Shown: in pieces, positions 8,378-28,822 of the stretch
Numbering within the stretch: position 1 is the first letter of the stretch
Layout of the letters: the number at the start of each line of letters is the position of its first letter
NCBI GenBank assembly: GCA_964540515.1
Contig: CAZIMS010000003.1
Location: 10,010-74,009 of the forward strand
DNA length: 64,000 nt
Direction: 5' to 3'
DNA from: an uncultured Pseudomonadota bacterium
Lineage (GTDB): Bacteria; CALINM01
Notes under the pieces: model-generated
The model's input: only the letters and a program-made list of their open reading frames with translations
Database searches by the model: none
Told to the model about the DNA's origin: nothing
Made by a program: the position numbers and the translations under genes

Positions 8378-8401
8378 GATATAATTATTTTGAGGGAGAA
8401 A

Positions 8402-8815
8402 ATGCTAAAAAACAAACATCTAGCCATATTAATTATTTGTATATATATAATAATTAGCGTAAAAACTCTTTATGCCCAAAATCTCAATAATTTCAAAACA
8501 ATAAAAATTAAGGTAGACGGTAGGGAACTTAATGTGGCACTTGCGGACACACCAAAAAAGAGGGAACAAGGCCTTTCTGGAACTGAACTTATTGATTTAA
8601 AAAGGAGAAACATTCAGGGAATGCTTTTTGTCTTTGAAGATGACAAAGAAAAGACATTTCAAGCATGGTATATGAGATATGATTTAATGCTATTAGTATT
8701 AGAAAAAATTAATGGATATAATTTTAGTGTAAGGCAAAGGGTTCCTTTGAGAGTGGCAACCACTGCAAAGGTATCAGGGAGATGGGTATTAGAAGTACCT
8801 ATTAAGAAAGATTAA
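8402..8815 (+). CDS. DUF192-family secreted protein
   Basis: Signal peptide, then a segment (VALADTPKKREQGLSGT...GMLFVFEDD...YMRYDL) that matches the DUF192 consensus (A.T...R..GLM.R ... GMLF.F ... M.NT..PLD). Confidence 0.55.
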   Translation: MLKNKHLAILIICIYIIISVKTLYAQNLNNFKTIKIKVDGRELNVALADTPKKREQGLSGTELIDLKRRNIQGMLFVFEDDKEKTFQAWYMRYDLMLLVLEKINGYNFSVRQRVPLRVATTAKVSGRWVLEVPIKKD

Positions 8816-8975: not shown

Positions 8976-10310
8976 ATGCTAAACAAAAAAATATTGAACT
9001 TACTTAAAAGCAAAAAGATAGCCCTCCCTTTGACAATATTTTTATTATTGTTATTTAACAGTGGTGCTTACGCTATTTCGCTGGGTAATCCTGTTATAGT
9101 ATCTGACAGTAGGTTTCAGAGTTTAGGTGGGATAGCTACAGACGGTACTAATATTTATGTTGCCGATTATGGTGCAAATAAGATCTGGAGACTTGATGCC
9201 AGCAGAGTAGTAACTCCCCTCATTAATGTGTCCAAGCCAATCTCTGTTGCCCACGATAGCGGCAAACTATATGTTATAACTGAGAATGGAGGATTTACTT
9301 ATACTACTGCAGGGGCAAATACAACACCAAATAGTTTTGGTGCAGGGGTGGTTAAGGCTTCTGACATTATAGTTGATACTACATATATTTATATAGCAGA
9401 TATTTCTGCAAAAAATGTCAAAAGATATAATAAATCAACAGGTGCTTACGTTGATGCCATTGGTGGTCCTGTTAATACATCAGCTACAGATGCGCAGAGT
9501 GGTAAATTTTACATGCCATCAGGCCTTGCGCTTTCTGGTACAAAGTTACTTGTTTCTGACTACAATAATCCGAGTAACATAAGATATACATTAGCAGCTG
9601 CAGGTGGTACTACTGCATGTATAAGTGGTGTAACGGGCGATATAGGTTATAGAGTTACTAAGCCCACAAAACTCGCTAACAAATATGATAGCAAAATTGC
9701 TCGTCAAGATAGTAGGTATTATTACTATAACTTATGTCCAAACATGACAGGCCTAAATACAGGCACCAAGCCTGATAACATTGTCCTCTGTTCTCAGACA
9801 GAACTAATTAATGGTACTTGTCCTGATTTTGGTGGATACTTAGGTTATAAATCTACTGGTGTTGTGCCAGATAGTTATGAAGGTAAGCCTAAGGGCCTTG
9901 TTCAAATATTTAATGGTACTACCTTTGACAGATCCTATGTGTTAAAAAGCTTTAAAGACGCTACTAATTTTGTGATTGCTAATTATACGCTTACAAGTCT
10001 GTGGGCTGATGGCACATATATCTATACTCTTGACTCACAGGGTATGAAAATAGATATTTACGACGATATCTCAAACACCTCTTTTGCGAAGGGGACAAAT
10101 GATGCTAATTATACTTATATACCCTTCGCTAATGATAATCTGGCCAAATCAGCACCAGCAGGTTACGGCAGATATCACAAGGCTGGAAGGAAAACTTTGC
10201 CAACAAGCTTACAAAACTCCTTAGTTATATATAGAGATCTTGTTAAAAAAGGCACAGAGCTTGTAATATCAGACACAGCTGGTAAGGTTATATACTTTCC
10301 AATTCAGTAG
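8976..10310 (+). CDS. Secreted Asn/Thr-rich beta-propeller-like protein (NHL/SMP-30-like repeats)
   Basis: Signal peptide and repeated motifs such as YVADYGANKIWRLD, KLYVITENGG and YIYIADISAKNVKRY, resembling NHL / six-bladed propeller blades. It carries about 10 N-x-S/T sequons. Confidence 0.35.
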   Translation: MLNKKILNLLKSKKIALPLTIFLLLLFNSGAYAISLGNPVIVSDSRFQSLGGIATDGTNIYVADYGANKIWRLDASRVVTPLINVSKPISVAHDSGKLYVITENGGFTYTTAGANTTPNSFGAGVVKASDIIVDTTYIYIADISAKNVKRYNKSTGAYVDAIGGPVNTSATDAQSGKFYMPSGLALSGTKLLVSDYNNPSNIRYTLAAAGGTTACISGVTGDIGYRVTKPTKLANKYDSKIARQDSRYYYYNLCPNMTGLNTGTKPDNIVLCSQTELINGTCPDFGGYLGYKSTGVVPDSYEGKPKGLVQIFNGTTFDRSYVLKSFKDATNFVIANYTLTSLWADGTYIYTLDSQGMKIDIYDDISNTSFAKGTNDANYTYIPFANDNLAKSAPAGYGRYHKAGRKTLPTSLQNSLVIYRDLVKKGTELVISDTAGKVIYFPIQ

Positions 10311-10329
10311 TAAGGAGGGGGCTTAGAAA

Positions 10330-11106
10330 ATGAGAAGAGTTTTTGGCTTTATATTGGTGATGATTTTAATAAGCGTAAGTTTTAAGGTCTATGCAGCGAC
10401 AAAAAATGTCTCAAATACAATGCATAATTTAGCAACATGGTCTGGCAACACCATTAGATCTACAAATGTTAATGAAGTCTGCGTTTTTTGCCATACGCCT
10501 CACTCAGCGTCAGAAGTGCCATTATGGAATAGAGATACTGAGATGAGAGGCAATACTTATGTAGGCTTTATACCATACAGTACTGCTTATGCAACACAGT
10601 TTCTTTTAGGTATGGAAACACTTTTATGTATGAGTTGCCATGATGGCATTACATCTATGAGAGCCATACATAATAAACCCAATGTTTTAGGTAGCTCACC
10701 CATTACTATGACAACTGAGAATTTTACCGGTAATCCAGGTAGTTTTGCCGATATAGGTAACCCCGATGAATTCGCAAATATGTATAGTGTAAGTTTAGCA
10801 GATGCAGAGTCATATTATAGCACTGGTGGTGCAATGGTCTTTAGAGCATGGGCGGATCCAATTAGCGGTAGAGGTCTTGGTGATCATCCTATATCTATTA
10901 ACTATGACGAGGTTGTTGCAAATGCTCCATCTAAATATAGAACTAAGCCAGCAACATTAAGATTTTTTGGAGACGACAAGGATGTTTTAGAATGCACTAC
11001 CTGTCATGACCCACATGTTGATTATAATTTGGATACGAGGTATAGGCCCTTTCTTGCCTATAGCAATAGGTCTTCAGCTTTATGTTTTCAGTGCCATATA
11101 AAATAA
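10330..11106 (+). CDS. Tetraheme c-type cytochrome with a signal peptide or membrane anchor; possibly a NapC/NrfH-like electron entry module
   Basis: Four CxxCH motifs (CVFCH, CMSCH, CTTCH, CFQCH) and an N-terminal hydrophobic segment. GGAGGGGG ribosome-binding site upstream. Confidence 0.8.
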   Translation: MRRVFGFILVMILISVSFKVYAATKNVSNTMHNLATWSGNTIRSTNVNEVCVFCHTPHSASEVPLWNRDTEMRGNTYVGFIPYSTAYATQFLLGMETLLCMSCHDGITSMRAIHNKPNVLGSSPITMTTENFTGNPGSFADIGNPDEFANMYSVSLADAESYYSTGGAMVFRAWADPISGRGLGDHPISINYDEVVANAPSKYRTKPATLRFFGDDKDVLECTTCHDPHVDYNLDTRYRPFLAYSNRSSALCFQCHIK

Positions 11107-11123
11107 AATTTTAGGAGAACCTT

Positions 11124-14100
11124 ATGAAGCACCTAAGGTTAGCAATTTTATTAATAACAATTATAATGGGTGTAATGGCTAATCAAGTCTATGCTGTTGA
11201 TCCACCACATAACACTATTGATTGTTCAACTTGTCATGGTGCAGGTAGAGTTAGCTATGGTAGGCAAGGTCTTGACCTATCAACAGTGTGTTTAGACTGT
11301 CATAGACCAGGTGGGTTAGGCAAACCTGTAGGTACAAAGCCAGCTAATCTTTATGGTGCTTTAAACTCGATTACACCATTTGGTGAAGGTACTGAACATA
11401 GCTTCTCCGGTTATGACATCAATCCATTAGCTAAAGCAACAACAAGACCTAGGGATAATGAATTTGTAGGCGCCTATGGCACAAAGTTGGCAGGAATGCT
11501 TTCTTGTAACTCCTGTCACAATCCCCACAAGCAACCAAATAATGCAGTCGGCGGCAAGTTCTTGAGGGCAAAAGGCGATAAAAGTAACGTCTGTATTAAA
11601 TGCCATAGCCCTATGAATGTTACTGTAAAAGGTGGTTTTTCTCATCCTGTTAACAGTATGGTAGGGTTAAATGAAAGCGAATATTTCACACAACCGCAAT
11701 ATACAACACTTAAATCTGTATATAAAGCAAGCAATAACAACGTGACATGTCTTGTTTGTCATAAGGTTCATTATGGGTTTTCCAATCCAACAGCAACAAG
11801 TGGCAAAGGCAATGCTAAGTTAGGGCGTGTATATACCGATGACTGGCTTTGTGCACAATGTCATAAAATGTCAGTTCATGGTAATACTAAAGGATCACCG
11901 ACAGCAACATGTATAAGCTGTCATAGTACTCATAACCCCGGTAATAATATAAAACTTGTTAGAACTCAAGTTGTTGATTCAAGAGGGAAAACAAAAGCTC
12001 TTGTTTATACAGCCAACTCATTACCAACGGATTTTTATAATAACCAGGGTACAGGACTATGTCAGGCATGTCATACTAAGACCAAATACTTTAGAAACTA
12101 TTCAGTAACTAACTATATAATTACTGGTAACTCAACTCATAATCCAGATAATAGTAAGTGTATAATCTGTCATAGCCATGAGCCCGATGAAAATTTTGTT
12201 GCACCTTTAGTAGATGAAGTGCCTAATTTTCCACGAAGGGCCTTCGGTACTTCTTCCTGTAGCGGTTGTCATGCTTTTCCACCGAATAATGGTGCACACC
12301 TAAAGCATGCAAATAGTAATACTGATTTGACTGACTGTGCAGTATGCCATATAGGAGCAACAAACTTTACAACCCAAGGCGGCCATGCAAACCACGAGAT
12401 AGGCAACCTGCTTAATCTAAACGACAGGAATAAAAGAAACTTGGCTACTTTTATTACTAAAAACTCTACAAATAAATTATTAAATACTTGTGGAGGTGGA
12501 AGCCAGCCCTGCCATAGTCAGACAGGTACAGTTCCTACATGGGGTAGTACTTCGCTTTCTTGCGACGCCTGTCATGGTAATCCGCCATCAACAGGCAATC
12601 ATGTAGTGCATTCAGTGACTAATTCAATGCTCTGTACAGATTGTCACTACAACGTGACTAACAACACTGCTACCTTTAGACCCCATGCCTCAGCCTTAAG
12701 TACAGCAGGCCTTACTGATGAACAGGCATACAAAAAGAAGGCATGGGATATAACTTACACTTATGATATAAAGGTAGATGACAGAAATAGAAATAATGGG
12801 TTTAGTACCTATAGCTCTTATAACAAATCTTGTTCAAATATAGTATGTCATGACCCAAGTAATATAAACAAGAGAGCAAGATGGAATATTGATTCACCAA
12901 CATGTAATTTGTGCCATGGTAGCAATGCAACTAATATGACTACGGGCTCACATAGCCAACATTTAAATGCATCTGCTACTTTTGGTATTGCTATAACATG
13001 TAGTAGCTGTCATACAAATGTTGGACCTACTGCATATAACCATTTTATGTCAACACTTAATGCAATAGAGTTAGTAGGTCTTAATTATACAGGAGGTTTA
13101 GTCCCTGGCGATAACAGCTTTGGTTCCTGTGGTACAAACGCATGTCATAATAATGGTAGAGGTGGTGCTCCTATAAATAATACATACACTTGGGGTGTTA
13201 CACCTCCAGGTGACCAATGTGCAATCTGTCACGCAATGCCACCAGACACACCATATGTCGATGCCACATACTCTAAACACAAAGTGCATTGGATTAGCTA
13301 TATTCCAAACATTAGTCCTAAACTAACCCCTCAATGTACAATGTGTCATACTGCAGGTAATGCCTCTACACACATTAACAGCGCAGTAAACATGTTATAT
13401 GGTGGTAGTAATTACATTACAACATTTAGCTTTGGTGCCAACGTTAATGACCCAACTGATGATACCTGTCAGGCAACCTGTCATTCAAGCCCAACCTCAA
13501 ATCTTGTCTGGTCCGCAAGCAAACCAACAAGCTGTGATGCCTGCCATGGTTTCCCTGGATCTGCGACAAACCCACTAAATACAGGTAAACATCATAAACA
13601 CCATGTAGATAGTGATACTGACTATACAGAATGCGGTCAGTGCCATCCAAATGTAGAAGGTTATACAACAGCATTATCGGGCAAGCATGGTGATGGTACA
13701 AAAGATACTGGCCCTGGTGGTAACTCAAAAGTATCAAGCTGGATTAAAGCCACAGAATCTTGTACAAACAATTGTCATACAGTTGCAAATAACCTTTGGA
13801 AGGCAACCCAAAAAAATACAGCAGATCCTCTACAGTGTTACAACTGTCACGGCAACCCCCCAACTACAGGCAAACATACAGCCCATGTAACAAATAGCTC
13901 AATTGCCTGTGTAGCCTGTCATTTTGGTGCTAACACAACACCACATACCCCTCTTACACACAACGATGTTACTGGCACTGCTTCTAACGATGGCGATTTT
14001 CTATACAAGAAAGCTGTTGGTTGGAACTCGGCAGTTTATACAAGAACTATAGAAGTCGACGACAGATTATACAATAACGGCACTACCCCAACATGGGCAT

Positions 14101-15911
14101 CAGGTAGCTGTTCTACTAAGAAATGTCACAATCCTTCACCATCTGCAACTTATAGTGCAAACTGGACAAGTGGCGCTAATTCATGTACTCTATGTCATGG
14201 ATATATTGGAGCAACAACAGGTTTATCAACTGGTCACAATGCCCATGTGACAGCAAACACCAACTTTGGAATAAATATTACATGTACTAACTGCCATAGC
14301 AATAATGCTGGTAATTACAGGCACTTTATGGTTGGTGGTGTACCACGTGGGTATGTAGACTTTTCTGGAGCTGTTTTCTTTAGATATACAACAGCTGATA
14401 GAACTATACCAGGTACAAGAAACACTGGTTATTGTACAACTAATGTATGTCACAATGATGGACGAGGTGTAAGCTATCCAGCAGTGTCATCAAAAATACA
14501 TTGGGGAACTACACTTCCTAATAATGATCCTAACGTAGCGTGTAACATTTGTCATAAGTTTCAGATAAATACGAGAAGACATTTTGACCACTTCTCAACG
14601 GTAAGTACTGCTAAATATGGTCCAAGGTTACAGTTTACAACAGCTAACTGTAATCAGTGCCATAGCTTACAAACAAACTCAACACATATTAATACAGTTG
14701 TTAACTTTAGAGATGGTGGCGCTAACTTATCAACTACAAAATCTTGTAACAACTGTCATACCTCTGTGAATGCTCAGAGAGCAAAAGGTTACTGGTTATA
14801 CAGCTCAACGACGAGCTTTTTAAGATGTCAGACTTGTCATTTAACAACAGCTGGAACACCTGCATATAGCAAATACACAAGCTCAATTGCCGGAGGTGTG
14901 TACGCACCAGCATTTCCAGCCTATGCAACGCTAGGTCACGGAAGACCAACTGCATCTGGTAATTATGCTTCAGGTAATCCTCCTGCAAATCAGACATTAT
15001 GTACGAATTGTCATGGTATTACATCTTGGGGAAGTGGTGGAAGACATATAACCAATACAGCTAATGATTTCAAAAGATTGATACTATCTACTACAAATGC
15101 ACAATGTAATTACTGTCATGGAGCAAATCAGCCTGGCTTTGCAACTAAGAGCGGTATAGTATCTCATAAAGGTACAGTAAGATTTTCTTTCCCAGAACTT
15201 TCATGTGGTGAATGTCATGAGTTACACGGTGGTAGCACTAATAAACCTGTAAACAGTAACATAATGATGATCAGAGCCACAAATGCAACATACTATGCTC
15301 CATCCGCTACTGTAGTATTTACATCGCGGACCTTTGGCACTGATTCTTTTGACGAGGCTGAAAGTCCCTTTACTTCGGGATCTTCTAATAATGATGATAT
15401 CTGTGCGACTTGCCATGTAAATACTTACCACAATAGCAGGACCAAAGATGGTAAACATGGATCAGGAAACAATGGCACAGACTATGGCAACAGTCAGAGC
15501 TGTATAAACTGCCATAGCCATAAAAACTTCTTTACACCAGCTGGTTGCAATGGCTGTCACGGTACAGATGGGCCTGATGGTGCACCAAGAACATCTGGAG
15601 GCTCAAAATACTCAGGCAGCTATGGTGCCCATGCTATACATCTGGATCTTATATTCCCAAGAGTTGGAGTAACAACTAATAAATGTGATAAATGTCACGG
15701 GGCTGGTGCTACAGCAGGCACACACACTGGACATAATCAGGGTAATGGTAATGTTTTAAGATCTAACGTAACATTAAATGTAAGCACTGAATACGCCTTC
15801 AAGGGTACAAACCCAAGTTACGTTATGAGCACTGAGCCACAGTATGCCTATTGTGCAAGCACTAACTGTCATTTTGGACCATCTCCAAAATGGAAGTGCT
15901 TACCATACTAA
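11124..15911 (+). CDS. Giant secreted multiheme c-type cytochrome, 1595 aa, about 34 canonical plus about 8 variant heme sites
   Basis: Signal peptide MKHLRLAILLITIIMGVMANQVYA. I counted 34 CxxCH motifs and further Cx3CH, Cx4CH and Cx6CH sites (CSNIVCH, CGTNACH, CQATCH, CTNNCH, CSTKKCH, CTTNVCH, CASTNCH, CGGGSQPCH), often paired with a following CxxCHG-PP-xG-H module. The protein is extremely rich in Asn, Thr, Ser and Gly. Confidence 0.93.
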   Translation: MKHLRLAILLITIIMGVMANQVYAVDPPHNTIDCSTCHGAGRVSYGRQGLDLSTVCLDCHRPGGLGKPVGTKPANLYGALNSITPFGEGTEHSFSGYDINPLAKATTRPRDNEFVGAYGTKLAGMLSCNSCHNPHKQPNNAVGGKFLRAKGDKSNVCIKCHSPMNVTVKGGFSHPVNSMVGLNESEYFTQPQYTTLKSVYKASNNNVTCLVCHKVHYGFSNPTATSGKGNAKLGRVYTDDWLCAQCHKMSVHGNTKGSPTATCISCHSTHNPGNNIKLVRTQVVDSRGKTKALVYTANSLPTDFYNNQGTGLCQACHTKTKYFRNYSVTNYIITGNSTHNPDNSKCIICHSHEPDENFVAPLVDEVPNFPRRAFGTSSCSGCHAFPPNNGAHLKHANSNTDLTDCAVCHIGATNFTTQGGHANHEIGNLLNLNDRNKRNLATFITKNSTNKLLNTCGGGSQPCHSQTGTVPTWGSTSLSCDACHGNPPSTGNHVVHSVTNSMLCTDCHYNVTNNTATFRPHASALSTAGLTDEQAYKKKAWDITYTYDIKVDDRNRNNGFSTYSSYNKSCSNIVCHDPSNINKRARWNIDSPTCNLCHGSNATNMTTGSHSQHLNASATFGIAITCSSCHTNVGPTAYNHFMSTLNAIELVGLNYTGGLVPGDNSFGSCGTNACHNNGRGGAPINNTYTWGVTPPGDQCAICHAMPPDTPYVDATYSKHKVHWISYIPNISPKLTPQCTMCHTAGNASTHINSAVNMLYGGSNYITTFSFGANVNDPTDDTCQATCHSSPTSNLVWSASKPTSCDACHGFPGSATNPLNTGKHHKHHVDSDTDYTECGQCHPNVEGYTTALSGKHGDGTKDTGPGGNSKVSSWIKATESCTNNCHTVANNLWKATQKNTADPLQCYNCHGNPPTTGKHTAHVTNSSIACVACHFGANTTPHTPLTHNDVTGTASNDGDFLYKKAVGWNSAVYTRTIEVDDRLYNNGTTPTWASGSCSTKKCHNPSPSATYSANWTSGANSCTLCHGYIGATTGLSTGHNAHVTANTNFGINITCTNCHSNNAGNYRHFMVGGVPRGYVDFSGAVFFRYTTADRTIPGTRNTGYCTTNVCHNDGRGVSYPAVSSKIHWGTTLPNNDPNVACNICHKFQINTRRHFDHFSTVSTAKYGPRLQFTTANCNQCHSLQTNSTHINTVVNFRDGGANLSTTKSCNNCHTSVNAQRAKGYWLYSSTTSFLRCQTCHLTTAGTPAYSKYTSSIAGGVYAPAFPAYATLGHGRPTASGNYASGNPPANQTLCTNCHGITSWGSGGRHITNTANDFKRLILSTTNAQCNYCHGANQPGFATKSGIVSHKGTVRFSFPELSCGECHELHGGSTNKPVNSNIMMIRATNATYYAPSATVVFTSRTFGTDSFDEAESPFTSGSSNNDDICATCHVNTYHNSRTKDGKHGSGNNGTDYGNSQSCINCHSHKNFFTPAGCNGCHGTDGPDGAPRTSGGSKYSGSYGAHAIHLDLIFPRVGVTTNKCDKCHGAGATAGTHTGHNQGNGNVLRSNVTLNVSTEYAFKGTNPSYVMSTEPQYAYCASTNCHFGPSPKWKCLPY

Positions 15912-15968
15912 GCTGTAAAAGGGGTGATAAATATGAAGATATATAGCTTAATAAAAAGGAAGGTAAAT

Positions 15969-18900
15969 ATGAAAAAGATAGCATTAACATTCATATTGAT
16001 GCTACTTGTACCTGTAATTGCACAAGCTGCTGTTACAGTAGCAGACGTTGTTAAACATATTCCCACAGATGTGTCAGTGCAAGCAGGTGCATCAACTACA
16101 GACCTCAACAGAAATGTTATCACCCTTTCATATAGCTTAAGGTCAGATCAAACTAATGATGTGTTAACTAGTATTACAATTGATGATACTGGAACCCTTG
16201 CTGCAGGTGAGGCAGATCTTAAGGTTTATGTTAACCCTATGGGTAGAAATAGTACAAGGGGCGCCTTTCTTGTGGTAAACCAGCCATCTTGGAGTGCTGC
16301 GAGTGGGACTATAAACTTTTCGAGGAACATTGCACTTACACAAAATGTTAAAGCTTTTGTATTTATTGTATATGATTTAAGAAGCACCGCTGCAGGTAGA
16401 ACAATTCAGACATCAGTATCGTCCATGGGGCTTGCTGCTGGTAGTGGTAGTGGTACAAGCGTTCCTATAAACCAAACTTCAAATTTAAATAATGTAGTTG
16501 CAAAGACCGCATGTTATGATGATGTAAAGCTTAATCAATGTGGTATGTGTCACAACTATCAGGGCTATTACCAGATGTTTTATCCCCATTCATCAGCTAC
16601 ATCAAGAAAGGGGCATGAAAAACATGTTGGCCTTAATAGATTTGAATGCTTTATCTGCCATAACAATGCAAATAGATATCATACAAGGTATACCAGTGTA
16701 GCGCCACAACACATGAATAATGCTATTAACGTAGGCCCTAAGATTTGGGACAATGTATCTTCTGCCGGTGGATTAGGTGTTGGACATGGCAGTTACAATA
16801 GTTCAACAAGAGTATGTTCAAACGTATATTGTCATTCTAATGGTGCTGGCACGAGGGTTAACTCTCCTGCTTGGGGAACAAAGGCATCAGGCTGTACAGT
16901 ATGCCATGGGACACCACCAAACACAGGAGCACATAATGCCCACTGGACAAGGATAACAGGCCTTACTTCTCCAGGAGATTGTGGTATATGTCATAGGGAT
17001 GGTGGAACAGGCACCTTTCATCATGCCGATGGTCATGTAGATGTGTTATTCGATCCCGCCTATAACGACAGAAACTTAACAGCCACTTACAATACTGGTG
17101 CAAAGACATGCTCTAATGTAAGTTGTCATGGTGGTGTAACAACCCCAGCCTGGAATTCTGCTACAGGTGCATATAGACAGACAGTTACAGGTGCTGCTTT
17201 CACTTCAGAAAACAATACATGGTTAAGATGTGAGATGTGTCATGTAGTTGATAACATAACATCAGGACAAGAAACCAATGTTTCCAGATGGAATAGTGCA
17301 AGGTCTGGTAAACACAACGCCCATGCTGTGACAGGCCTTGCAAGTATGAGGGCATACACAGGTATAGTTAATGGTGTTAACTTTGGAAGAAAAAGAATGA
17401 GGGTATCAGTATGTTATGTCTGCCACAACAATGCACATTTTGATGGCACAGCAAATGATTATCGCTGGACAAAGGCCAGTATTTCCGATTACCATTTTTC
17501 CATTAACCCAGGTGGCACTAACAATACAATAGGTGGTAGCGCACAAAGAGGTGGTGGAACTGTAGGAGCAAATATATTTGATACTTATGTTGATAACTCA
17601 ACAACTGCTATAGCACTAAATACTTCACCGACTCAAAATGTCTTTTATATGAGGTCAACAGCTGATATATATCAATCTGGTACCTGTAACAACACAGACT
17701 GCCATGGTGGTGGTACATGGAGTTATGTGGCTACATTAGACTGTACTACATGTCATAGTAAGGTGATAAGGGGTAGAACAGCAAATGTAATTGCTGAGTT
17801 TAGTATGCCATCTCGCCATGTTCAGGGTGTAGCGGTTAACTCTCATCATTGTTACAGATGCCATTGGGAGGCTGACAATAATGCTGGAACAATAGTTAAA
17901 AACGCTTTATACCATGGTGATAATAAAGCACAGTTAGTTATCTATGATTCAACTAACAATGCGAGACCAACAACAGCAAATAGCGCAACCTTAACTGTCT
18001 TTAACAGAGCTACATCTGCAACTAGTTTGCGGGTTAATGCCCACTGTTTAGGCTGCCATAATGAAGGTGGAAAGGGAAAAGCAATCTTTCCAGGTGATAC
18101 AAGAACAACAAACCAGTATGCTTGGGATGGAAGCTCAATACAGGCGAGATATATGGCATATAGACGTTACTCGTCACATGTGTATAACGCAGTAACCTAC
18201 AACGTAGTTCCAAATAAAATTAAAACTTCTAGCTCACACTACTATATGAACCAGCATCAAAGAGGTGTTGCTGTTGGTGCAGCATGGTCAGATGACCAGA
18301 GCACGATTTTAGCAGCAGGCACCTTTGATGCCCAGGGAAGGCAGGGTTCTGTTGGTTGTTTAGACTGTCATAACTCACACGGCTCTAACATACCTTTTGG
18401 TACCTTTGGCTATACATCTTACAGCTCCTTTACTGGTAAACACAGGGGTGGTATATTAAAACAGACATGGGCAAATACTCATGGCTATGGTGATAATTAT
18501 ACACCGACTGAAAGAAATCTTAACGTTACTGGTGGTTTATGGGCAATATGGAGCGCCCAAGCAGCACTATGCTTTGACTGTCATTTAGGTCCTGATAAGG
18601 CCATTACAGCATATTTGGGATCAACCTATTCAAGCTGGTCTTCAGTAACTACTTTGCCACCAGATAGTAGGGGAGTAAGAAGAAACTACATTAGCTATGG
18701 TAGAAACGCTGGTAATATCATTGCAGGTTACTATGATCCTATAAATTATGAAGCTGCAATAACTAACAGAGCATCGATACACGGTAGAGGTAGATGGTAT
18801 ATAGATTTAAACACCGCAAATACTACCTATGGTAATAATGGCTATAGTTATGTACAAAATCAGAGAAACAATAGTGCAGCCTTCTGGTTTGGTGAGTTTA

Positions 18901-20264
18901 GTTATAAAAGAGGTACTATAATTGGTACCCATTTTAAAAAATACGATGGTGCCTACGTACAAGGTTATACTCCAAGAGACTGGAAAAATAGTGCTAATTC
19001 TGGTAATACTAGATCAGATCTAAGGGGTATGTGCACGCCATGTCATGATCCTCATGGAGTTAATGCCCTAAATGGAAGTCCCTACTTGGCAAATATAAGG
19101 TATTACTCTCCACAGCTTAAAGGTATGTGGCTAACAGGTTTATATTATGAAGACAGACCTGGAAATAGAGATACTTCTGCTAATTCCGAGGGCACTTACG
19201 CAGTTGTTAATACTTTTAGTACCAATACTCTTACTAATACGAGAGTAGCTCCAAGAATGGTTCCTACAAAAAGACTAAGCAGACCTAAACAAACAGGTAA
19301 TGGATATGGTTTTGGTTTGAATGACGGATTAGGTCAAGATGGTTTCTTTATTGATGATAATACCTTCGGCGTAACAATAAATAATGGTACTACTGCTGTT
19401 GAGTTGTTTAGTAATAATAATTATAATCTTGTGCATCAAAACTACTGGTTTGATAACTGGACTAATGGTCAAGTACATCCATTTCGTACAGGAGGGTCAG
19501 TTACTGTGAATATGATTTCGGAGAGTGAAAGTCAGTTTGCAGGTTTGTGCCTTGGTTGTCATCCAAAAAGCGTTTTAGTAAATACGCTATCATCTCATAA
19601 CAATAGAAGAGCGTCATTTCAAACGCATGCCCATAAAACAGTAAAAGGCTGGGCTGCAACGGCAAATTCGCCTGCAAATGCTGATATAGTACCAAACTAT
19701 TATATCAACAGAGCTTCTAACGCCGCAGGCTTAACGAACGCTTATACAACGACTAATAATTTTGGAAATATTTCAATGTCACCACTTCTATTGTATGCTA
19801 ATGGTGGTACTGCTGGAATAAGAGGATTAGATGCTCCTAATGTGCAGGTAGGTATTCACTTTTACTGGGGCTTACATTTACCAAAGCAGGCTGATACAAA
19901 CGCAAGCAACAATATACAGGTACAATATCATAACTTCCCATGCTCAAAGTGCCACACAGTTCACACCTCAAGGCTACCAAGACTTATGAAAACTAACTGT
20001 TTAGATGTAAGGCAGTCAAAAGATGTTGCAAATAACTGGGCATCAGGTAGTAATTTATTTAGACAGAAATTTGCAGAAGGTAATAATAACTGGTACATTA
20101 GAATGATTTATACAGGCACAAACAATAGTCCAGGAACATCAGGGACTACAGCAAATCTTCTCATCTGGAATCCAGCCAGAGCCGTTAGATGCCATAATAG
20201 TCCACTTGTTATGGATAACGTTAATCAAACCAGATGGAATGATGTAACTCCATGGGGTAATTAA
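15969..20264 (+). CDS. Giant secreted multiheme c-type cytochrome, about 1430 aa, about 17 heme sites
   Basis: Preferred start is MKKIALTFILMLLVPVIAQA (signal peptide, AAGGAAGG ribosome-binding site); the ORF track begins at a GTG at 15924. It has 14 CxxCH and 3 Cx4CH (CSNVYCH, CSNVSCH, CNNTDCH) motifs and an approximately 190-aa heme-free N-terminal domain. Confidence 0.9.
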   Translation: MKKIALTFILMLLVPVIAQAAVTVADVVKHIPTDVSVQAGASTTDLNRNVITLSYSLRSDQTNDVLTSITIDDTGTLAAGEADLKVYVNPMGRNSTRGAFLVVNQPSWSAASGTINFSRNIALTQNVKAFVFIVYDLRSTAAGRTIQTSVSSMGLAAGSGSGTSVPINQTSNLNNVVAKTACYDDVKLNQCGMCHNYQGYYQMFYPHSSATSRKGHEKHVGLNRFECFICHNNANRYHTRYTSVAPQHMNNAINVGPKIWDNVSSAGGLGVGHGSYNSSTRVCSNVYCHSNGAGTRVNSPAWGTKASGCTVCHGTPPNTGAHNAHWTRITGLTSPGDCGICHRDGGTGTFHHADGHVDVLFDPAYNDRNLTATYNTGAKTCSNVSCHGGVTTPAWNSATGAYRQTVTGAAFTSENNTWLRCEMCHVVDNITSGQETNVSRWNSARSGKHNAHAVTGLASMRAYTGIVNGVNFGRKRMRVSVCYVCHNNAHFDGTANDYRWTKASISDYHFSINPGGTNNTIGGSAQRGGGTVGANIFDTYVDNSTTAIALNTSPTQNVFYMRSTADIYQSGTCNNTDCHGGGTWSYVATLDCTTCHSKVIRGRTANVIAEFSMPSRHVQGVAVNSHHCYRCHWEADNNAGTIVKNALYHGDNKAQLVIYDSTNNARPTTANSATLTVFNRATSATSLRVNAHCLGCHNEGGKGKAIFPGDTRTTNQYAWDGSSIQARYMAYRRYSSHVYNAVTYNVVPNKIKTSSSHYYMNQHQRGVAVGAAWSDDQSTILAAGTFDAQGRQGSVGCLDCHNSHGSNIPFGTFGYTSYSSFTGKHRGGILKQTWANTHGYGDNYTPTERNLNVTGGLWAIWSAQAALCFDCHLGPDKAITAYLGSTYSSWSSVTTLPPDSRGVRRNYISYGRNAGNIIAGYYDPINYEAAITNRASIHGRGRWYIDLNTANTTYGNNGYSYVQNQRNNSAAFWFGEFSYKRGTIIGTHFKKYDGAYVQGYTPRDWKNSANSGNTRSDLRGMCTPCHDPHGVNALNGSPYLANIRYYSPQLKGMWLTGLYYEDRPGNRDTSANSEGTYAVVNTFSTNTLTNTRVAPRMVPTKRLSRPKQTGNGYGFGLNDGLGQDGFFIDDNTFGVTINNGTTAVELFSNNNYNLVHQNYWFDNWTNGQVHPFRTGGSVTVNMISESESQFAGLCLGCHPKSVLVNTLSSHNNRRASFQTHAHKTVKGWAATANSPANADIVPNYYINRASNAAGLTNAYTTTNNFGNISMSPLLLYANGGTAGIRGLDAPNVQVGIHFYWGLHLPKQADTNASNNIQVQYHNFPCSKCHTVHTSRLPRLMKTNCLDVRQSKDVANNWASGSNLFRQKFAEGNNNWYIRMIYTGTNNSPGTSGTTANLLIWNPARAVRCHNSPLVMDNVNQTRWNDVTPWGN

Positions 20265-20288
20265 AAAAAAAATAAAAGGAGGTTTGTG

Positions 20289-20345: not shown

Positions 20346-20373
20346 TGAGAAGTTGCAAGTCAGTGTTATTGGT

Positions 20374-20404
20374 AAAAGGGCGTAAATTATACGCCCTTTT
20401 TTTA
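20374..20404 (+). terminator. Rho-independent terminator ending the cytochrome operon
   Basis: Stem GGGCGTA / TACGCCC with loop AATTA, followed by T8. Confidence 0.75.
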
Positions 20405-21386: not shown

Positions 21387-24002
21387 ATGAATGAGAGAAA
21401 GATTACTAATTATCTATTGTTAGTCTTTACACTATCGTCATTTATCTTAAGACTTATACCATGGAAATACACTATAATTGATGGTGGTAAATGGGTACTA
21501 TTTGTACAACCCGATGCCTATTACCATTTAAGAAGAGCAACTATTTGGGCACAGAATTTTCCTAAAATTTTTACTCTTGATTATTATATGGCATATCCAT
21601 TTGGTGCTGAGTGTCCTTGGCCGCCACTTTATGATTGGCTTATTGCTGTTGTGACGATTATTTTAGGAGGCGGAAAATATAATGTTAATATATTACAGAT
21701 TGTAACAGCATTATTCCCACCGATCTTAGCGGCATTATGTATTTATCCCGTTTATAAAGTTGTTTTTTTGATATGGAAAAGCAATAGAGTAGCTTTAATA
21801 GCTGCCTTTTTTGCTATCTTGATGCCAGGTATGCTTAGTTATTCAACCATAGCTTCTGGTGATCATCATATAGCAGAAACCTTGATAGGACTTTGTTTTT
21901 ATTATTATGCATTAAAAATTGTAGATGCTGCAGAGGATAAAGGGATATCTAATAAAGATGTTTCTTTAACTGCAATATTTATAATAATAGGACTGTTAGT
22001 ATGGCAAGGAGAGGTAGTTTTCTTTACAATTTTTGCTATTTATCTTTTTATCCTTTTTTTAAAAATGAGAAATAACTTTGAATTTATAAAAAAGGTCTCG
22101 AAGGCATTTTTGATATCCTCAATAATTAGTTCATCTTTTTTGGCATTAATAAGATTCATTATTCCAGGAGGAACTCATCTAAGTCTTTTTAATTTTGGTT
22201 ATTTTTCATACTTTCAACCCTTATACATGCTGTTTTTATATTTAGGAGTCTTTTTATTTGGAAGGTTAATATTCATTTATATGAAAAACAAAAAAATTTT
22301 TTTAATATCACTTTTAAGCACAGCTATTTTTATATTAACCACTTTAATTATTATCAAACCCTTAAGAGTTGGAGTTTGGGAAGGTATAAACTTCCTTTTC
22401 AAAACTGATCCATGGCATGCAAGTATAAATGAGTTTCAAAGTACCTTTACTTTGAATTTTCTAAAAAGTAGCTTAGAAAGCTTTGAAGGATGGACTAATA
22501 TTATTTATTTTTTATCATTTTTACTTCCTTTTACATATTCTGTATTTTTTATTTATAAATGGCTTAAAAATAAAAAAATAAGCTATCTATTTGTTACAGA
22601 ACTACAAATTAAACCATCAAAAAGTAATAACTTCATTATCAATAGTGAGCACTTTAAATATAATAACTCAGATATTTTGAAAAGATTTTTCGAAAAAAAT
22701 AAAAATAAAACTTTATTTTTTATTGTAGTCGCCATTGCTTTTTTTCTTTTAGCACTATATCAAAAGAGATGGACCAACTCTTATAGTCCAATTCTTGCTA
22801 TTGGGCTTAGTTTGTTTGCTAACAATATATATATAAGAGTTAAAAAAGGACATTTTTTAATAAGAGAGTTTTTTCATTGGAGGTCAAAAAAGCTTAAAGA
22901 TAGTCCTGGTCTATTAACAAGAATCATTTTTTTGTGGGAAAAATCGCCATTAATACTCTCTTTAATAATAATAATTCTTTTCTTATTCCCCTATTATATA
23001 ATAGCTCAAGGTATATTGTTAAGAAAAGGCTATCCCATAGAGTCAGATCTGTATAATAGCTTACAATGGATGAGATTATATACTCCAAAAACAAGCTATC
23101 TCTATAAACCAAATGAAAAACCAGAATATGGTGTACTCGCCACTTGGGATATGGGACACTTTATACAATACATAGCAGAAAGACCTGCAATCGTAAATAA
23201 TTTTGGTCATCAGCTACCGGGAGATGGCTTTAAAACATCTATATATGTATGGAGTTGTGATAGTGAAGATGAGCTCACATCTATTTTAGATAAATACCAG
23301 GTAAGATATTTAATCCTGTCAGATCCAATTGTTTACTTTAATGATAATGTTAAAGCTTATACAAAGGAAGGTTTTCTTGAAAAAGCAATACAGTTTGAAA
23401 AAATTCATTACAATATACAAGTACCAGTTCCTACAGAAGAGTTTTTTCGACTACCATTGGCAAATACATGGTTATTTGATGGGAGTGCGAACAATTATAA
23501 AAGTGCTACAAAAAGGCTAAGGTTAGTCTTTGAGTCTCAAAATCCAACACCTTTTCAGTATTTCGAAGGGTTAGAAACTAAAAAAATTAAGATATTTGAA
23601 TATGTTAAAGGTGTAAAGGTTAAAGGAAAAACAAAACCAAAAGATATTATATACATAAGTGCAGATTTTATTACTAATTTTGATAGAGGCTTTAGATGGG
23701 AAGCTGCAGCTATAGCTGATGAAAATGGTAACTTTACCGCCTATTTGCCCTACGCAACAGCAGAAGATAACCTTTTTGTTAAACCATTATCTCCCTATTA
23801 TTTTTATAGCTCCCAAAAAGAAATCAAAGTATATACAACTAATAGTGAGGTAGAAAATGGTGTCGAAAAAAGCGTTGATATGAATTCGGGTGAAAATATC
23901 CCAGAGTTTAAAAGGGATGAGATAAGACAAAAGCTAATTGGCTTAGCAGGTCAGGTAAGGTCTAAAAATTTTATGAAGTTACATAGGAAGATTAATGAAT
24001 AG
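21387..24002 (+). CDS. STT3/AglB/PglB-like oligosaccharyltransferase homolog (GT-C), 871 aa, divergent
   Basis: About 13 N-terminal transmembrane helices. The first loop has QPDAYYHLRRA...YYMAYPFGAECPWPPLYD, compared with Stt3 DPWFNYRA...WYPLGR...YPGLM. The motif ATWDMGHF sits where WWDYG lies in Stt3/PglB, followed by an approximately 300-aa C-terminal soluble domain. Confidence 0.55.
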   Translation: MNERKITNYLLLVFTLSSFILRLIPWKYTIIDGGKWVLFVQPDAYYHLRRATIWAQNFPKIFTLDYYMAYPFGAECPWPPLYDWLIAVVTIILGGGKYNVNILQIVTALFPPILAALCIYPVYKVVFLIWKSNRVALIAAFFAILMPGMLSYSTIASGDHHIAETLIGLCFYYYALKIVDAAEDKGISNKDVSLTAIFIIIGLLVWQGEVVFFTIFAIYLFILFLKMRNNFEFIKKVSKAFLISSIISSSFLALIRFIIPGGTHLSLFNFGYFSYFQPLYMLFLYLGVFLFGRLIFIYMKNKKIFLISLLSTAIFILTTLIIIKPLRVGVWEGINFLFKTDPWHASINEFQSTFTLNFLKSSLESFEGWTNIIYFLSFLLPFTYSVFFIYKWLKNKKISYLFVTELQIKPSKSNNFIINSEHFKYNNSDILKRFFEKNKNKTLFFIVVAIAFFLLALYQKRWTNSYSPILAIGLSLFANNIYIRVKKGHFLIREFFHWRSKKLKDSPGLLTRIIFLWEKSPLILSLIIIILFLFPYYIIAQGILLRKGYPIESDLYNSLQWMRLYTPKTSYLYKPNEKPEYGVLATWDMGHFIQYIAERPAIVNNFGHQLPGDGFKTSIYVWSCDSEDELTSILDKYQVRYLILSDPIVYFNDNVKAYTKEGFLEKAIQFEKIHYNIQVPVPTEEFFRLPLANTWLFDGSANNYKSATKRLRLVFESQNPTPFQYFEGLETKKIKIFEYVKGVKVKGKTKPKDIIYISADFITNFDRGFRWEAAAIADENGNFTAYLPYATAEDNLFVKPLSPYYFYSSQKEIKVYTTNSEVENGVEKSVDMNSGENIPEFKRDEIRQKLIGLAGQVRSKNFMKLHRKINE

Positions 24003-24684
24003 TAATTATAGGATATCCGTAGTTATTCCTGTGTATAATGAAAAGGATAATATTAAAAAGATAGTTGAAGAGGTATTAAAACAAAAGGTAGATGAGATTA
24101 TTATTATAGATGACTGTTCTAATGATGGCACAAGAGATGTTTTAAATAATATAGTTGATGATAATATTAAAAAGATATATCACGAAAAAAACATGGGGAA
24201 AGGAGCTGCTGTAAGAACAGGACTAAAAAGAGTTACTGGCGATATAATTATAATTCAAGATGCAGATCTCGAGTATGACCCTAATGAGTATATTAAGCTT
24301 CTTGAACCAATCTTTAAGGATAAGGCAGATGTTGTTTATGGTAGTAGATTTAAAGGTGTTACGAGGGTTTTTTATTTTTGGCATTATTTAGGCAATAAGT
24401 TTCTTACATTCATCTGCAATTTACTTTATAATACTACTTTGTCAGATATGGAGACCTGTTATAAGGTCTTTAAAAGAGAGTGTGTGACAGATTTAGAGCT
24501 TAAATCTAACGGCTGGGGTTTTGACCCAGAGATTACAGCTCATTTTCTAAAGAAAAAAAACATTCGAATTGTTGAGGTGCCCATATCCTATTATGGAAGG
24601 ACCTATGACGAGGGAAAAAAGATTAGGTGGAAGCATGGCATAGTAGTTTTATTTACTATATTTTGGTGTAAGTTTATAAAGTGA
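23995..24684 (+). CDS. GT2 glycosyltransferase, polyprenyl/dolichyl-phosphate sugar synthase (Dpm1-like)
   Basis: A 229-aa protein with ISVVIPVYNEKDNI...IIIIDDCSNDGT...IIIQDADLEYDP, the classic GT-A DxD fold of Dpm1/GtrB-like enzymes. Its start overlaps the stop of the OST-like gene. Confidence 0.8.
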   Translation: MNSNYRISVVIPVYNEKDNIKKIVEEVLKQKVDEIIIIDDCSNDGTRDVLNNIVDDNIKKIYHEKNMGKGAAVRTGLKRVTGDIIIIQDADLEYDPNEYIKLLEPIFKDKADVVYGSRFKGVTRVFYFWHYLGNKFLTFICNLLYNTTLSDMETCYKVFKRECVTDLELKSNGWGFDPEITAHFLKKKNIRIVEVPISYYGRTYDEGKKIRWKHGIVVLFTIFWCKFIK

Positions 24685-25745
24685 TGATTAGAAAGTTAAT
24701 ACTAATTTTTTTACTGCTTTTACCTCATATTTCTTATGCAAAAGAAGTAGAGCTTCTTAAATATAATACTATTAATGATATTGAAGAGATAAAAGCTGAT
24801 GAAGATACAGCCATTTTAATCCTATCGAGTAGATATTACATTGATGATCTAAGAAAGTTAGTTGGCGATAGGGGATATATTTACTGGGTTCTGCCTTTTT
24901 CTCAAGTAGAAGAAAAAGATTTGCTTGCATTTAGACATCTTGCCGAGACTTTAGGCAGGCATGTTAAAATAAACTTCACATCTGAAGGAGCCTATGTAGA
25001 AGAAGAAGGATGGTTAGATTACAAAATTATTTCTTATTTAGATCTTAACAAAGTTGTTTATGAGAAGATTGTAATATTGTTAGATGTTGATTTTTTCTTT
25101 AGACTTTATATTAATAGTATTTCAAAGGTTAACAATGAGAAAACCTTAGAGATAATGAAGTTTTACCGCAGCATTGAAAGTTATGAGCTTAATGTAAATC
25201 AGATATATTTAATATTAAGTAGAGATATTAATCTCCCTGAATGGGCTGAGGAGTTTGGTTATCTTATAGAAAAGATTTATCATTATTGGAAGAAAAAAGA
25301 GTTCCCAACAAGTTACGTTTTATTGGATGAGGTGGGCAAATATATAGTTTTTGCACAGTATGAAGAAGCCTATGAAATATTATTAGATGTGTTTCCAGAA
25401 CAGTCAGAAAATCCCTATTTTTATGAAAAAATGCTTTTTATAAGTTCAAAATTACGTGCCTTTAACGATATGTTAAAAGCTTTTGAGGAAGGATACAAAA
25501 GAAATAGTGCTATTATTTTTTTAGTGCCTGATATTGCAAAAGAATTATTGCAAAAGAGAGAGTTTTATCCTTCCTATCTATTAGTTAAAAGTGCCTATGA
25601 AAAGGAGATTTGGAATAAAGAGATAAAAAAGTTACTTGAAGATATTATTTTAGAAGGCTATAAATTCTATAATATGTTAAATGAAGATAGTGAGCTTTTT
25701 GAGTTTTTTAAGTCTGAATTGGAAAAGTTAAAAAGTAAGAAGTAG
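24681..25745 (+). CDS. Secreted hypothetical protein (354 aa)
   Basis: Signal peptide MMIRKLILIFLLLLPHISYA. No recognisable domain. Translationally coupled to the GT2 gene (ATGA overlap). Confidence 0.5.
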   Translation: MMIRKLILIFLLLLPHISYAKEVELLKYNTINDIEEIKADEDTAILILSSRYYIDDLRKLVGDRGYIYWVLPFSQVEEKDLLAFRHLAETLGRHVKINFTSEGAYVEEEGWLDYKIISYLDLNKVVYEKIVILLDVDFFFRLYINSISKVNNEKTLEIMKFYRSIESYELNVNQIYLILSRDINLPEWAEEFGYLIEKIYHYWKKKEFPTSYVLLDEVGKYIVFAQYEEAYEILLDVFPEQSENPYFYEKMLFISSKLRAFNDMLKAFEEGYKRNSAIIFLVPDIAKELLQKREFYPSYLLVKSAYEKEIWNKEIKKLLEDIILEGYKFYNMLNEDSELFEFFKSELEKLKSKK

Positions 25746-25764
25746 GGTTTACTGGGAGGTCATT

Positions 25765-27909: not shown

Positions 27910-28822
27910 AATTTTAATTATCTTTCTTCTTTTTTTTAATGTAAAAATTGTTTTTGCACTAAAGATAGAGCCAGATTTCATCAAGATTGGAGAAATATTA
28001 AAAGAAACGGAATACACTTTTAATATTAAAGTTTTTAATAATAGCAATGAGCCAATAGAGATCTTAGGGGTTATAAATCAATGTGGCTTAAATTTTAATC
28101 TTGAGAGGAAATATCTGTCTCCCCTGAAAGCTATATATGGCGAATTAAGATTCAACTCGGGCACTAACCCCGGCAGATTTATTGAATCTGTGAAGATAGT
28201 ATATAAAGAGAAAGACACAATTAAACAAAAAACACTTACTGTTAGCTGGTTCAATAAAGTTGAGTTTTATAGCAAACTTTTTATTTTGGATAAGAAAATT
28301 GATTTAGGTGAAATAAAACAAAATAGAAGCAAAAAATTTTTCATAGAAGTTGTTAATGCTGGTAATAGCGAGGGGGAGATTTTATTTCATGCCCTTGATG
28401 AAGGTTTGACTACAAATGTTAGAGAGAAGATACCCCCCAAATCTAATAAATTTTTGGAACTTAAGCTTGATGCTAAAACAGAAGTTATAAAAAAAAGATT
28501 AAGCTATGAGAAGCTTGATGTAAGAGGGGGTAGTGGTTTTGTAGAAATATTTGGAAGACCTTCTCAAATTTATTCTATTAGTATTGATAATCCTGTAAAA
28601 AAAGACCAGACCTATGAGTTAAGTTTGATAATGAATAATGTAAATAGTTTAGGGCAGTTATTAGAAGTTAGAGATGTTCATGGAAATAAATACGCTTTTG
28701 ATAGATCAGCGATTTTTAGAGGGGATAACATTATCAAGGTGTTTGTGCCAGAAAAAAATATTGATATTGTAGTTAAAAATGGAATTGTTTTGACTGTTAA
28801 GTTTCTACTTAATGATGAATAA
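27890..28822 (+). CDS. Secreted protein with two DUF1573-like (Ig-like) repeats
   Basis: Signal peptide. Repeats IKIGEILKETEYTFNIKVFNNSNEPIEILGVINQCG and IDLGEIKQNRSKKFFIEVVNAGNSEGEILF resemble the DUF1573 consensus (DFG.i..g....F...N.G..pL.I). Confidence 0.35.
   Translation: MLMKLNKILIIFLLFFNVKIVFALKIEPDFIKIGEILKETEYTFNIKVFNNSNEPIEILGVINQCGLNFNLERKYLSPLKAIYGELRFNSGTNPGRFIESVKIVYKEKDTIKQKTLTVSWFNKVEFYSKLFILDKKIDLGEIKQNRSKKFFIEVVNAGNSEGEILFHALDEGLTTNVREKIPPKSNKFLELKLDAKTEVIKKRLSYEKLDVRGGSGFVEIFGRPSQIYSISIDNPVKKDQTYELSLIMNNVNSLGQLLEVRDVHGNKYAFDRSAIFRGDNIIKVFVPEKNIDIVVKNGIVLTVKFLLNDE

Follow-up and report, generated by a model that had tools for sequence, protein, structure and literature searches.

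This study concerns a block of four genes at positions 8976-20264 of a 64,000-nucleotide stretch of DNA (the window; contig CAZIMS010000003.1 of an uncultured Pseudomonadota bacterium, positions 10,010 to 74,009 of the forward strand), and the question of what the many N-x-S/T sequons in its products, an NHL-like propeller and three multihaem cytochromes, say about glycosylation by oligosaccharyltransferases (OSTs) encoded nearby. The window has a GC content of about 30% and is bacterial, as it encodes SPOR-domain, LysM-domain, BamD/YfiO-like and MacB/FtsX proteins. The four genes are co-directional, are separated by gaps of 13-20 nt and all encode proteins with Sec-type signal peptides. Together with a DUF192-family gene upstream, they make up the following cassette (lengths in amino acids, aa):

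8390..8815, plus strand: DUF192-family exported protein of 141 aa (Pfam PF02643), encoded by the first gene of the cassette
8976..10310, plus strand: NHL-like six-bladed beta-propeller of 444 aa with a Sec signal peptide (Pfam NHL, AlphaFold2 (AF2) model)
10330..11106, plus strand: tetrahaem c-type cytochrome of 258 aa with a Sec signal peptide (four CxxCH motifs, Pfam Paired_CXXCH_1)
11124..15911, plus strand: giant multihaem cytochrome of 1595 aa (34 CxxCH and 7 CxxxCH/CxxxxCH motifs, TIGR01904)
15924..20264, plus strand: second giant multihaem cytochrome, 1446 aa from a GTG start (14 CxxCH and 3 CxxxxCH motifs, TIGR01904)

Judged by its gene content, the block is a cassette of the extracellular-electron-transfer type, with a DUF192 protein, an NHL propeller, a tetrahaem cytochrome and two giant CxxxxCH/CxxCH cytochromes. 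Both giant proteins score above the cut-off of 27 bits for the CxxxxCH/CxxCH model TIGR01904 (68 bits for the 1595-aa and 46 bits for the 1446-aa protein), the 1446-aa protein also matches PF09698 (29 bits against a cut-off of 21.7), and Pfam assigns Cytochrome_C7 and MtrC/MtrF domains II/IV to the 1595-aa protein. The signal peptides of the two giants are N-terminal, of the Sec type, and end in VYA and AQA; the second protein has 1431 aa if it is started at the ATG at 15969. The Cys and His residues of their haem motifs are invariant across 20 homologues. A PDB sequence search with the 1595-aa cytochrome returned zero matches, and an AF2 model of its residues 1-800, built from a 20-sequence alignment, reached a mean predicted local distance difference test score (pLDDT) of 43 and was unusable. 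We also observe that two homologues of the 1595-aa protein, P0058 and P0081, carry an N-terminal NHL/SGL propeller fused to 23-31 CxxCH motifs, a predicted link of the Rosetta-stone type between the propeller and the cassette cytochromes.

A sequence-only reading of this DNA had drawn attention to the sequons of the four block proteins, which it put at about 10, 3, about 27 and about 25. Our recount with the pattern N[^P][ST] gives 10 in the NHL-like protein, 3 in the tetrahaem protein, 29 in the 1595-aa cytochrome and 25 in the 1446-aa cytochrome, and every one of the example sequons that it quoted is found in the proteins. Across the 45 open reading frames (ORFs) of the window, the four of the block carry 1.79 sequons per 100 aa and the other 41 carry 0.39, which bears out the claim that the block stands above its flanking proteins. 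The compositional biases that it described are equally real: Asn, Thr, Ser and Gly together account for 30.6-40.0% of the block proteins against 14.3-26.7% elsewhere, and Lys plus Glu for 4.2-8.1% against 7.5-34.5%. The 1595-aa cytochrome contains 10.0% Asn, 11.7% Thr, 8.9% Ser, 9.4% Gly, 4.4% Lys and 1.4% Glu, and Ser plus Thr reach about 18-21% in the cytochromes.

The description of this density as extreme, by contrast, does not survive a comparison with composition. In 2000 composition-preserving shuffles per protein, the tetrahaem protein is expected to carry 3.0±1.5 sequons and has 3 (P of at least the observed number 0.59), the 1595-aa cytochrome is expected to carry 31.1±4.7 and has 29 (P 0.72), and the 1446-aa cytochrome is expected to carry 25.7±4.3 and has 25 (P 0.60). 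The result is the same for the 1431-aa version of the second giant (25 against 25.6) and when the shuffles are restricted to 50-aa blocks; the three cytochromes pooled have 57 sequons against 59.9 expected, and the DUF192-family protein has 1 against 0.6. Over all 45 ORFs, the count that composition predicts correlates with the observed one at r=0.97. The reversed motif [ST]-x-N is as common as the sequon itself, with 6 copies in the tetrahaem protein, 35 in the 1595-aa and 34 in the 1446-aa cytochrome. The ratio of NxT to NxS in the 1595-aa protein (20:9 against 17.7:13.4 expected) does not deviate significantly, and the Campylobacter-type sequon D/E-x-N-x-S/T is absent or at chance level in the four proteins (1, 0, 0 and 3 against 0.4, 0.2, 1.5 and 1.4 expected). 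Since the sequon density of the cytochromes equals its compositional expectation, it is uninformative; as a signal of glycosylation it has no significance for the cytochromes and a weak one for the propeller. The other 41 ORFs of the window are, as a separate observation, slightly sequon-poor for their composition (64 sequons where 78.7 are expected, Poisson P 0.05), and most of this deficit lies in large membrane proteins such as those at 31693-33765 (1 against 4.5) and 42397-45342 (1 against 5.6), the latter a 981-aa fusion of an MFS-like multi-spanning membrane domain with a spermine/spermidine-synthase-like domain.

Neither are the sequons placed with respect to haem. In the two giant cytochromes, the distance to haem motifs is no shorter for sequon Asn residues than for the remaining Asn (Mann-Whitney P 0.53 and 0.57), and the sequon density within about 12 residues of a haem motif compared with that beyond is 1.94 versus 1.95 per 100 aa in the 1595-aa protein and 1.30 versus 1.70 in the second giant; the Asn, Thr, Ser and Gly content is alike near and far. 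The sequence-only reading had itself allowed that sequon frequency might simply track the Asn/Thr content of secreted proteins, with no enrichment around Cys-haem modules. The tracking and the lack of enrichment are what we find, but the uniformly high density among secreted proteins is not, as seven further exported, non-membrane proteins encoded in the window are sequon-poor, also at 0.39 per 100 aa.

The same pattern extends to the relatives. Orthologous cassettes were taken from four other assemblies (loci L007/L011, L010, L012 and L013), and in L011 and L012 the DUF192-family gene is likewise kept upstream of the NHL gene. The cytochromes of L007/L011, which are 82-84% identical to those of the window, have 31 sequons against 30.2 expected and 25 against 25.8; the first cytochromes of L012 and L010 have 55 against 55.6 and 22 against 22.2, and the count in L013 is 22 against 20.7. 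The positions of the sequons turn over quickly: a fraction of 0.59-0.66 is retained between orthologues of 82-84% identity, falling to 0.18 when identity is 56% and to 0.14-0.15 when it is 38-48%. This does not exceed background, as eight control tripeptides are kept equally well or better (0.25-0.54 in the comparison at 56%). When the first 800 residues of the 1595-aa cytochrome are aligned across 20 sequences, all invariant columns except four are haem Cys or His or a distal His, and no sequon Asn is conserved.

Further afield, 55 homologues could be detected for the 1595-aa protein. All are rich in Asn, Thr, Ser and Gly and most are poor in Lys and Glu, with 0.4-3.0 sequons per 100 aa (2.11 in Geopsychrobacter electrodiphilus, 1.8-1.9 in Geothermobacter, 1.3-1.4 in Geomonas and 0.8 in Geotalea); for the giant cytochromes of the CxxxxCH/CxxCH family the figure is 0.8-2.4. 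The homologues with this bias that come from cultured hosts belong to genomes of 55-65% GC, and the bias is therefore a trait of the protein family and not of the low-GC host. Geopsychrobacter and Geomonas sp. RF6 keep a gene order of NHL protein, small multihaem cytochrome, giant cytochrome and second giant protein, and in these two cultured genomes no OST gene lies in the 10-kb flanks of the cassette. The trait is thus independent both of genomic GC and of an OST gene within 10 kb. We note separately that two of these homologues, unlike the window proteins, exceed their composition in sequons, namely those of Geopsychrobacter (L014, 10001-18121; 57 against 42.9, P 0.006) and Geomonas RF6 (L015, 9974-16279; 30 against 21.2, P 0.02). 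This excess may come from a repeated-module motif or from real glycosylation.

On these grounds we consider it quite likely that the high N-x-S/T density of the block is a passive by-product of a make-up, rich in Asn, Thr, Ser and Gly and poor in Lys and Glu, that runs through the whole family. About 10% Asn combined with about 20% Ser plus Thr would by chance give some 1.8 sequons per 100 residues, as observed. From what is generally known of multihaem cytochrome structures, such a make-up would reflect an uncharged, loop-rich, haem-wrapping extracellular architecture and not selection for glycosylation sites.

The NHL-like protein is the only block member above its compositional expectation, and modestly so: it has 10 sequons where 5.2±2.0 would be expected (P 0.02), and its reversed motif is depleted (1 against 5.3). 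It scores 23 bits against a cut-off of 20 with PF01436 (NHL), and its AF2 model, of medium confidence (predicted template modelling score 0.69, pLDDT 65), matches the NHL domains of TRIM2, TRIM3 and Brat with an E value of 1e-10 and a target-normalised template modelling score of 0.74-0.75; a lineage-specific insertion at about residues 198-306 is modelled with low confidence. Eight of the ten sequon Asn residues sit at strand ends or in loops of the model, and the other two lie inside this insertion. The closest orthologue, in L011 (73% identity), has 13 sequons against 4.6±2.0 (P<0.001). Six sequons of the two propellers fall in the same alignment column, and several others are displaced by a few residues within the same loop (PVNTSAT versus PVDMNAT, ANTT versus FNTT). 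A further NHL protein, P0211, has 9 against 5.1 (P 0.05).

These data would fit a propeller that alone is a selected N-glycoprotein in this lineage, with the cytochromes as incidental substrates at most. We regard this as possible but doubtful. No sequon excess is found in the NHL proteins of L012, L013, P0212, P0215, P0217 and P0231, and the two strongest cases come from close relatives and do not count as separate evidence. The counts are low, and the excess was sought in four proteins. Asn prefers turns in any case, and the model that places it there is only of medium confidence. The propeller nevertheless holds the block's only hint of selection for sequons, a modest one in one lineage, and because it is the sole protein to combine a sequon excess with sequon turnover in loops, it would be the best candidate for glycosylation within the block.

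The enzymes that could act on such sites, and the features that lie between them and the cassette, are encoded directly downstream:

20374..20400, plus strand: intrinsic-terminator-like hairpin with an 11-bp stem and five G-C pairs followed by a T-run, 110 nt past the last cytochrome stop codon
20565..21288, plus strand: MNT/HEPN toxin-antitoxin pair, a Polbeta nucleotidyltransferase and a HepT-like protein (Pfam PF18765, PF20797)
21387..24002, plus strand: STT3-family oligosaccharyltransferase of the archaeal AglB type, 871 aa (Pfam AglB_core-like, AglB_L1)
23995..24684, plus strand: GT2 glycosyltransferase of 229 aa that overlaps the OST stop codon (Pfam Glycos_transf_2)
24681..28822, plus strand: three exported proteins, of 354 aa, a 714-aa lipoprotein and a 310-aa DUF1573 protein, the first two without a family
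31693..33765, plus strand: second, more divergent STT3/AglB-like paralogue, 690 aa (weak Pfam AglB_core-like match)

The 871-aa OST starts about 1.1 kb downstream of the cytochrome block. Its N-terminal domain spans the membrane many times, with 15 partly overlapping hydrophobic windows within residues 1-546, and a periplasmic domain makes up the C-terminal part. It scores 49 bits with AglB_core-like (cut-off 27) and 52 bits with AglB_L1 (cut-off 23.6), and its homologues also match PF02516 STT3. Its best NCBIfam model is TIGR04154 archaeo_STT3, the archaeosortase-A-associated OST (332 bits, E 7e-99); neither this protein nor the 690-aa paralogue (174 bits) reaches the cut-off of 450 bits, so both are relatives of that subfamily and not members. 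Among solved structures, A. fulgidus AglB-L (5GMY/3WAJ) comes closest, and residues D43, D159/H161 and W587-D588-x-G590-H591 align with its DPWYY, NDHH and WWDYGH stretches. These stretches, in work attributed to Matsumoto et al. 2013, reportedly contain the catalytic and sequon-binding residues of AglB-L. Across 20 homologues D43, D159-H160-H161, E349 (in S-I-N-E), W587, G590 and H591 are invariant and D588 is kept in at least 90%. On this evidence the 871-aa protein is a genuine OST of the AglB type whose catalytic residues appear intact. Its sequon-binding motif departs from that of AglB-L: the first Trp of WWDYG is substituted in it (TWDMGH), and by P, A, S or Q in relatives, a change that may alter recognition of the +2 Ser/Thr. 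The 690-aa paralogue carries the motifs GPDSFYH, NIDHH and AWDIGH.

The GT2 protein, whose best NCBIfam model is the archaeal AglJ (127 bits, under the cut-off), is likely a polyprenyl-phosphate sugar synthase. Its gene stands directly 3' of the OST gene in every relative (L003, L004, L006, L007, L008, L010 and L011), and it and the downstream DUF1573 protein are the invariant partners of the OST. The exported protein of about 354 aa and the lipoprotein of about 714 aa accompany the OST in most relatives, with no lipoprotein called in L003 and L010; PDB searches with these two proteins, which span 24681-27909, returned no solved relatives, and they may be accessory subunits of the OST or dedicated partners. 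None of the three exported proteins is sequon-rich (1, 3 and 2 sequons in the 354-, 714- and 310-aa proteins against 1.2, 2.9 and 2.3 expected). A scan of GTDB genomes with an OST profile found four loci only, all in metagenome-assembled genomes (MAGs) that bear the label 'bacterium' or '(Delta)proteobacteria bacterium'. By its DnaK the host groups with MAGs at 87-92% identity, beyond which the values fall to 72-77% with a mixture of phyla, too little for a firm taxonomic placement. An earlier study described STT3 homologues of bacteria that group inside those of Euryarchaeota (PMC4973528).

The window shares the arrangement of a cassette directly upstream of the OST gene with L007/L011, where the OST is 61% identical, and with L010 and L012, where it is about 46% identical. 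L006/L008 (about 51%) have no cassette there, and the MAG GCA_037442505.1 carries its cassette (L013) and its two OSTs (L005, L006) on different contigs. In a neighbour-joining tree of the OSTs, the two subclades with this adjacency bracket the third without it, of which the simplest reading would be that the adjacency is old and was lost once. The strong hairpin at 20374-20400 is the top-listed terminator-like site in 8300-24100 and the one with the most G-C pairs (five), and the toxin-antitoxin pair sits between the cytochromes and the OST, whereas L007 and L011 run from cytochrome to OST directly. With hairpin and toxin-antitoxin pair in between, the cytochrome genes and the OST gene of the window are probably separate transcription units.

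Several points weigh against the sequon density being only a by-product of composition. That two of the three OST subclades keep the adjacency, even where the OSTs are 46% identical, hints at functional coupling, although shared descent of the gene order in a single lineage could explain it too. A small sequon excess is seen for the second cytochrome in L012 (42 against 31.9, P 0.025) and L010 (37 against 30.8), and the excess in the NHL-like protein is real, if modest, in this lineage. As the shuffles condition on composition, selection for glycosylation could still act through composition itself. The family-wide argument would also be weaker if the other hosts N-glycosylate too, and a PglB homologue from a Geobacter species is on record in Ollis et al. 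For the same listing we dropped a wider argument, that the Geobacterales are without N-OSTs, and kept the claim that no OST lies within 10 kb.

Some of these points would also support an adaptive loading of sequons, in which the cytochromes evolved their high density as dedicated, heavily N-glycosylated substrates of the adjacent OST. The sequence-only reading had leaned this way, in calling the block proteins consistent with substrates of the adjacent OST-like enzymes, and part of what it saw stands. The OST at 21387-24002, which has a paralogue at 31693-33765, keeps its catalytic positions, the adjacency recurs in L007/L011, L010 and L012, and a glycosylated cytochrome, HmcA of D. gigas, is a precedent. 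The four proteins are Sec-exported and would thereby encounter the OST at the outer face of the inner membrane. The part concerning the sequons does not stand: neither the window nor its closest orthologues have any excess over composition, the reversed motif is equally frequent, and the sites are neither close to haem nor conserved in position. Equal or higher densities are found in homologues with no OST within 10 kb, such as those of Geopsychrobacter and Geomonas, the third OST subclade is without the adjacency, as is the MAG with cassette and OSTs on different contigs, and in the window a terminator and a toxin-antitoxin pair split the genes. We therefore hold adaptive loading to be clearly unlikely.

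A different kind of modification is suggested by another group of genes in the window. Six paralogous membrane proteins of the GT-C type (PMT_2-like) with C-terminal TPR domains are encoded at 28812-30500, 33784-35505, 36999-38768, 48867-50420, 50420-52201 and 52953-54602. All six share the first-loop motif F-[VT]-[WD]-D-D, which makes them TMTC/PMT-like, and they may be protein O-glycosyltransferases. It could be argued that these enzymes, with their conserved F-V-W-D-D loop motif at 28812-54602, decorate the Ser/Thr-rich exported proteins, the cytochromes included, and that N-x-S/T is irrelevant. We think this very unlikely, as nothing ties the GT-C/TPR enzymes to protein substrates and lipids or polysaccharides are possible instead, their genes are not conserved beside the cassette in relatives, and the Ser/Thr richness is family-wide. 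With sugar-modification genes, these paralogues form a glycosylation island of about 33 kb. Two B12-binding radical SAM genes on the minus strand (35473-36945 and 54574-55971), an orthologue of which adjoins the OST module in L006, L008, L010 and L012, may belong to the glycan pathway. At 59806-60822 an actin-like protein (ALP_N and MreB-like_C) is encoded beside the SPOR- and LysM-domain genes.

That the block is a foreign island, recently acquired from a higher-GC donor, with make-up and sequon density as artefacts of base composition, can be dismissed almost outright: its GC of about 40% over 10-20 kb against about 27-32% downstream is the only sign of it, and horizontal transfer as the cause is ruled out by a GC content at third codon positions of 0.27-0.28 (0.27 in the 1595-aa gene) that equals the rest of the window, with the extra GC wholly at second positions (0.43-0.52 against about 0.27 elsewhere, 0.52 in that gene) and so driven by amino acids, while relatives hold the same cassette in the same context and homologues from 55-65% GC genomes share the bias.

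A compositional origin of the sequons leaves room for their use. AglB-type and some bacterial OSTs accept the minimal N-x-S/T, as the TANGT site of D. gigas HmcA exemplifies (PMC4894442). The block proteins would pass an OST that keeps its catalytic residues while they are still unfolded during export. Some of the approximately 67 sequons may therefore well be glycosylated, and we put the chances that at least one site of the block is glycosylated at roughly even. We further speculate, and rather doubt, that an archaeal-type N-glycosylation module of an AglB-like OST and an AglJ-like GT2, kept by the electron-transfer cassette across deep divergence in a deep-branching bacterial lineage, coats the propeller and the giant cytochromes. 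If this were true, the locus would encode a glycosylated bacterial electron conduit for which the approximately 67 sequons are a ready-made, if unselected, acceptor field. Glycans on the cytochromes, if confirmed, would bear on stability, mineral contact and conductivity.

Two implications follow from these data. The first is a caution, namely that a high N-x-S/T count is expected by chance in extracellular proteins rich in Asn, Thr and Ser, and that a composition control is needed before glycosylation is claimed. The second is the context itself, which is real and of moderate interest: a poorly known bacterial lineage encodes an OST of the AglB type that keeps its catalytic residues and repeatedly stands beside an NHL and giant-cytochrome cassette. 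The locus is a candidate case of N-glycosylation in bacteria other than Campylobacterota and Desulfovibrio, and of electron-transfer proteins that bear glycans, and the OST is of possible interest for glyco-engineering because its neighbours carry only minimal N-x-S/T sites. In full-text literature searches, no paper dealt with sequons of multihaem cytochromes, and OSTs and multihaem cytochromes came together only in HmcA; a further search, on how extracellular proteins are composed, gave no useful result.

Among known systems, the giant CxxxxCH/CxxCH cytochromes of Desulfuromonadales/Geobacterales, such as those of Geopsychrobacter electrodiphilus (2706 aa) and Geomonas sp. RF6 (2092 aa), resemble those of the window in their TIGR01904 / PF09698 match, in 25-30% identity over up to 87% of the 1595-aa protein, in gene order, in the Asn/Thr/Ser/Gly-rich and Lys/Glu-poor make-up and in sequon density. 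The window giants are shorter, with 34 and 14 CxxCH motifs against 39-62 in the Geopsychrobacter and Geomonas proteins, and they come from an uncultured lineage of about 30% GC in which they stand beside an AglB-type OST, whereas Geopsychrobacter and Geomonas RF6 have none within 10 kb. NHL propellers beside outer-surface multihaem cytochromes are known from extracellular-electron-transfer clusters (PMC10734462, PMC9769857). In the Uet cluster (UetHI of Tenderiales/Gallionella; PMC10734462) and in Desulfovibrio ferrophilus (DFE_0451/0463; PMC9769857), an NHL gene adjoins multihaem cytochrome genes as in the window. The window differs from these clusters in having no visible porin or peptidyl-prolyl isomerase partner and in its far larger cytochromes, and the likeness is one of gene neighbourhood. 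HmcA of D. gigas, a 16-haem periplasmic cytochrome, is N-glycosylated at TANGT by a PglB with relaxed sequon needs (PMC4894442). This site is a minimal N-x-T without an acidic residue at -2, and the window proteins are likewise nearly free of D/E-x-N-x-S/T; HmcA, however, has one documented site and a PglB-type OST, whereas the window has an AglB-type OST and cytochromes unrelated in size and family, whose glycosylation would be a prediction from the genes. The archaeal AglB system (A. fulgidus AglB-L, 3WAJ/5GMY, and Haloferax AglJ) provides the best models for the OST and the GT2 of the window, with the D, DxH, [ST]-I-x-E and W-D-x-G elements kept. The window host, in contrast, is bacterial, both enzymes score under their NCBIfam cut-offs, and in place of the archaeal WWDYG the OST and its relatives have T/Q/P/A/S-W-D-x-G-H. 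The locus represents two known kinds, a giant-cytochrome cassette typical of its family and an AglB-like OST in a bacterium.

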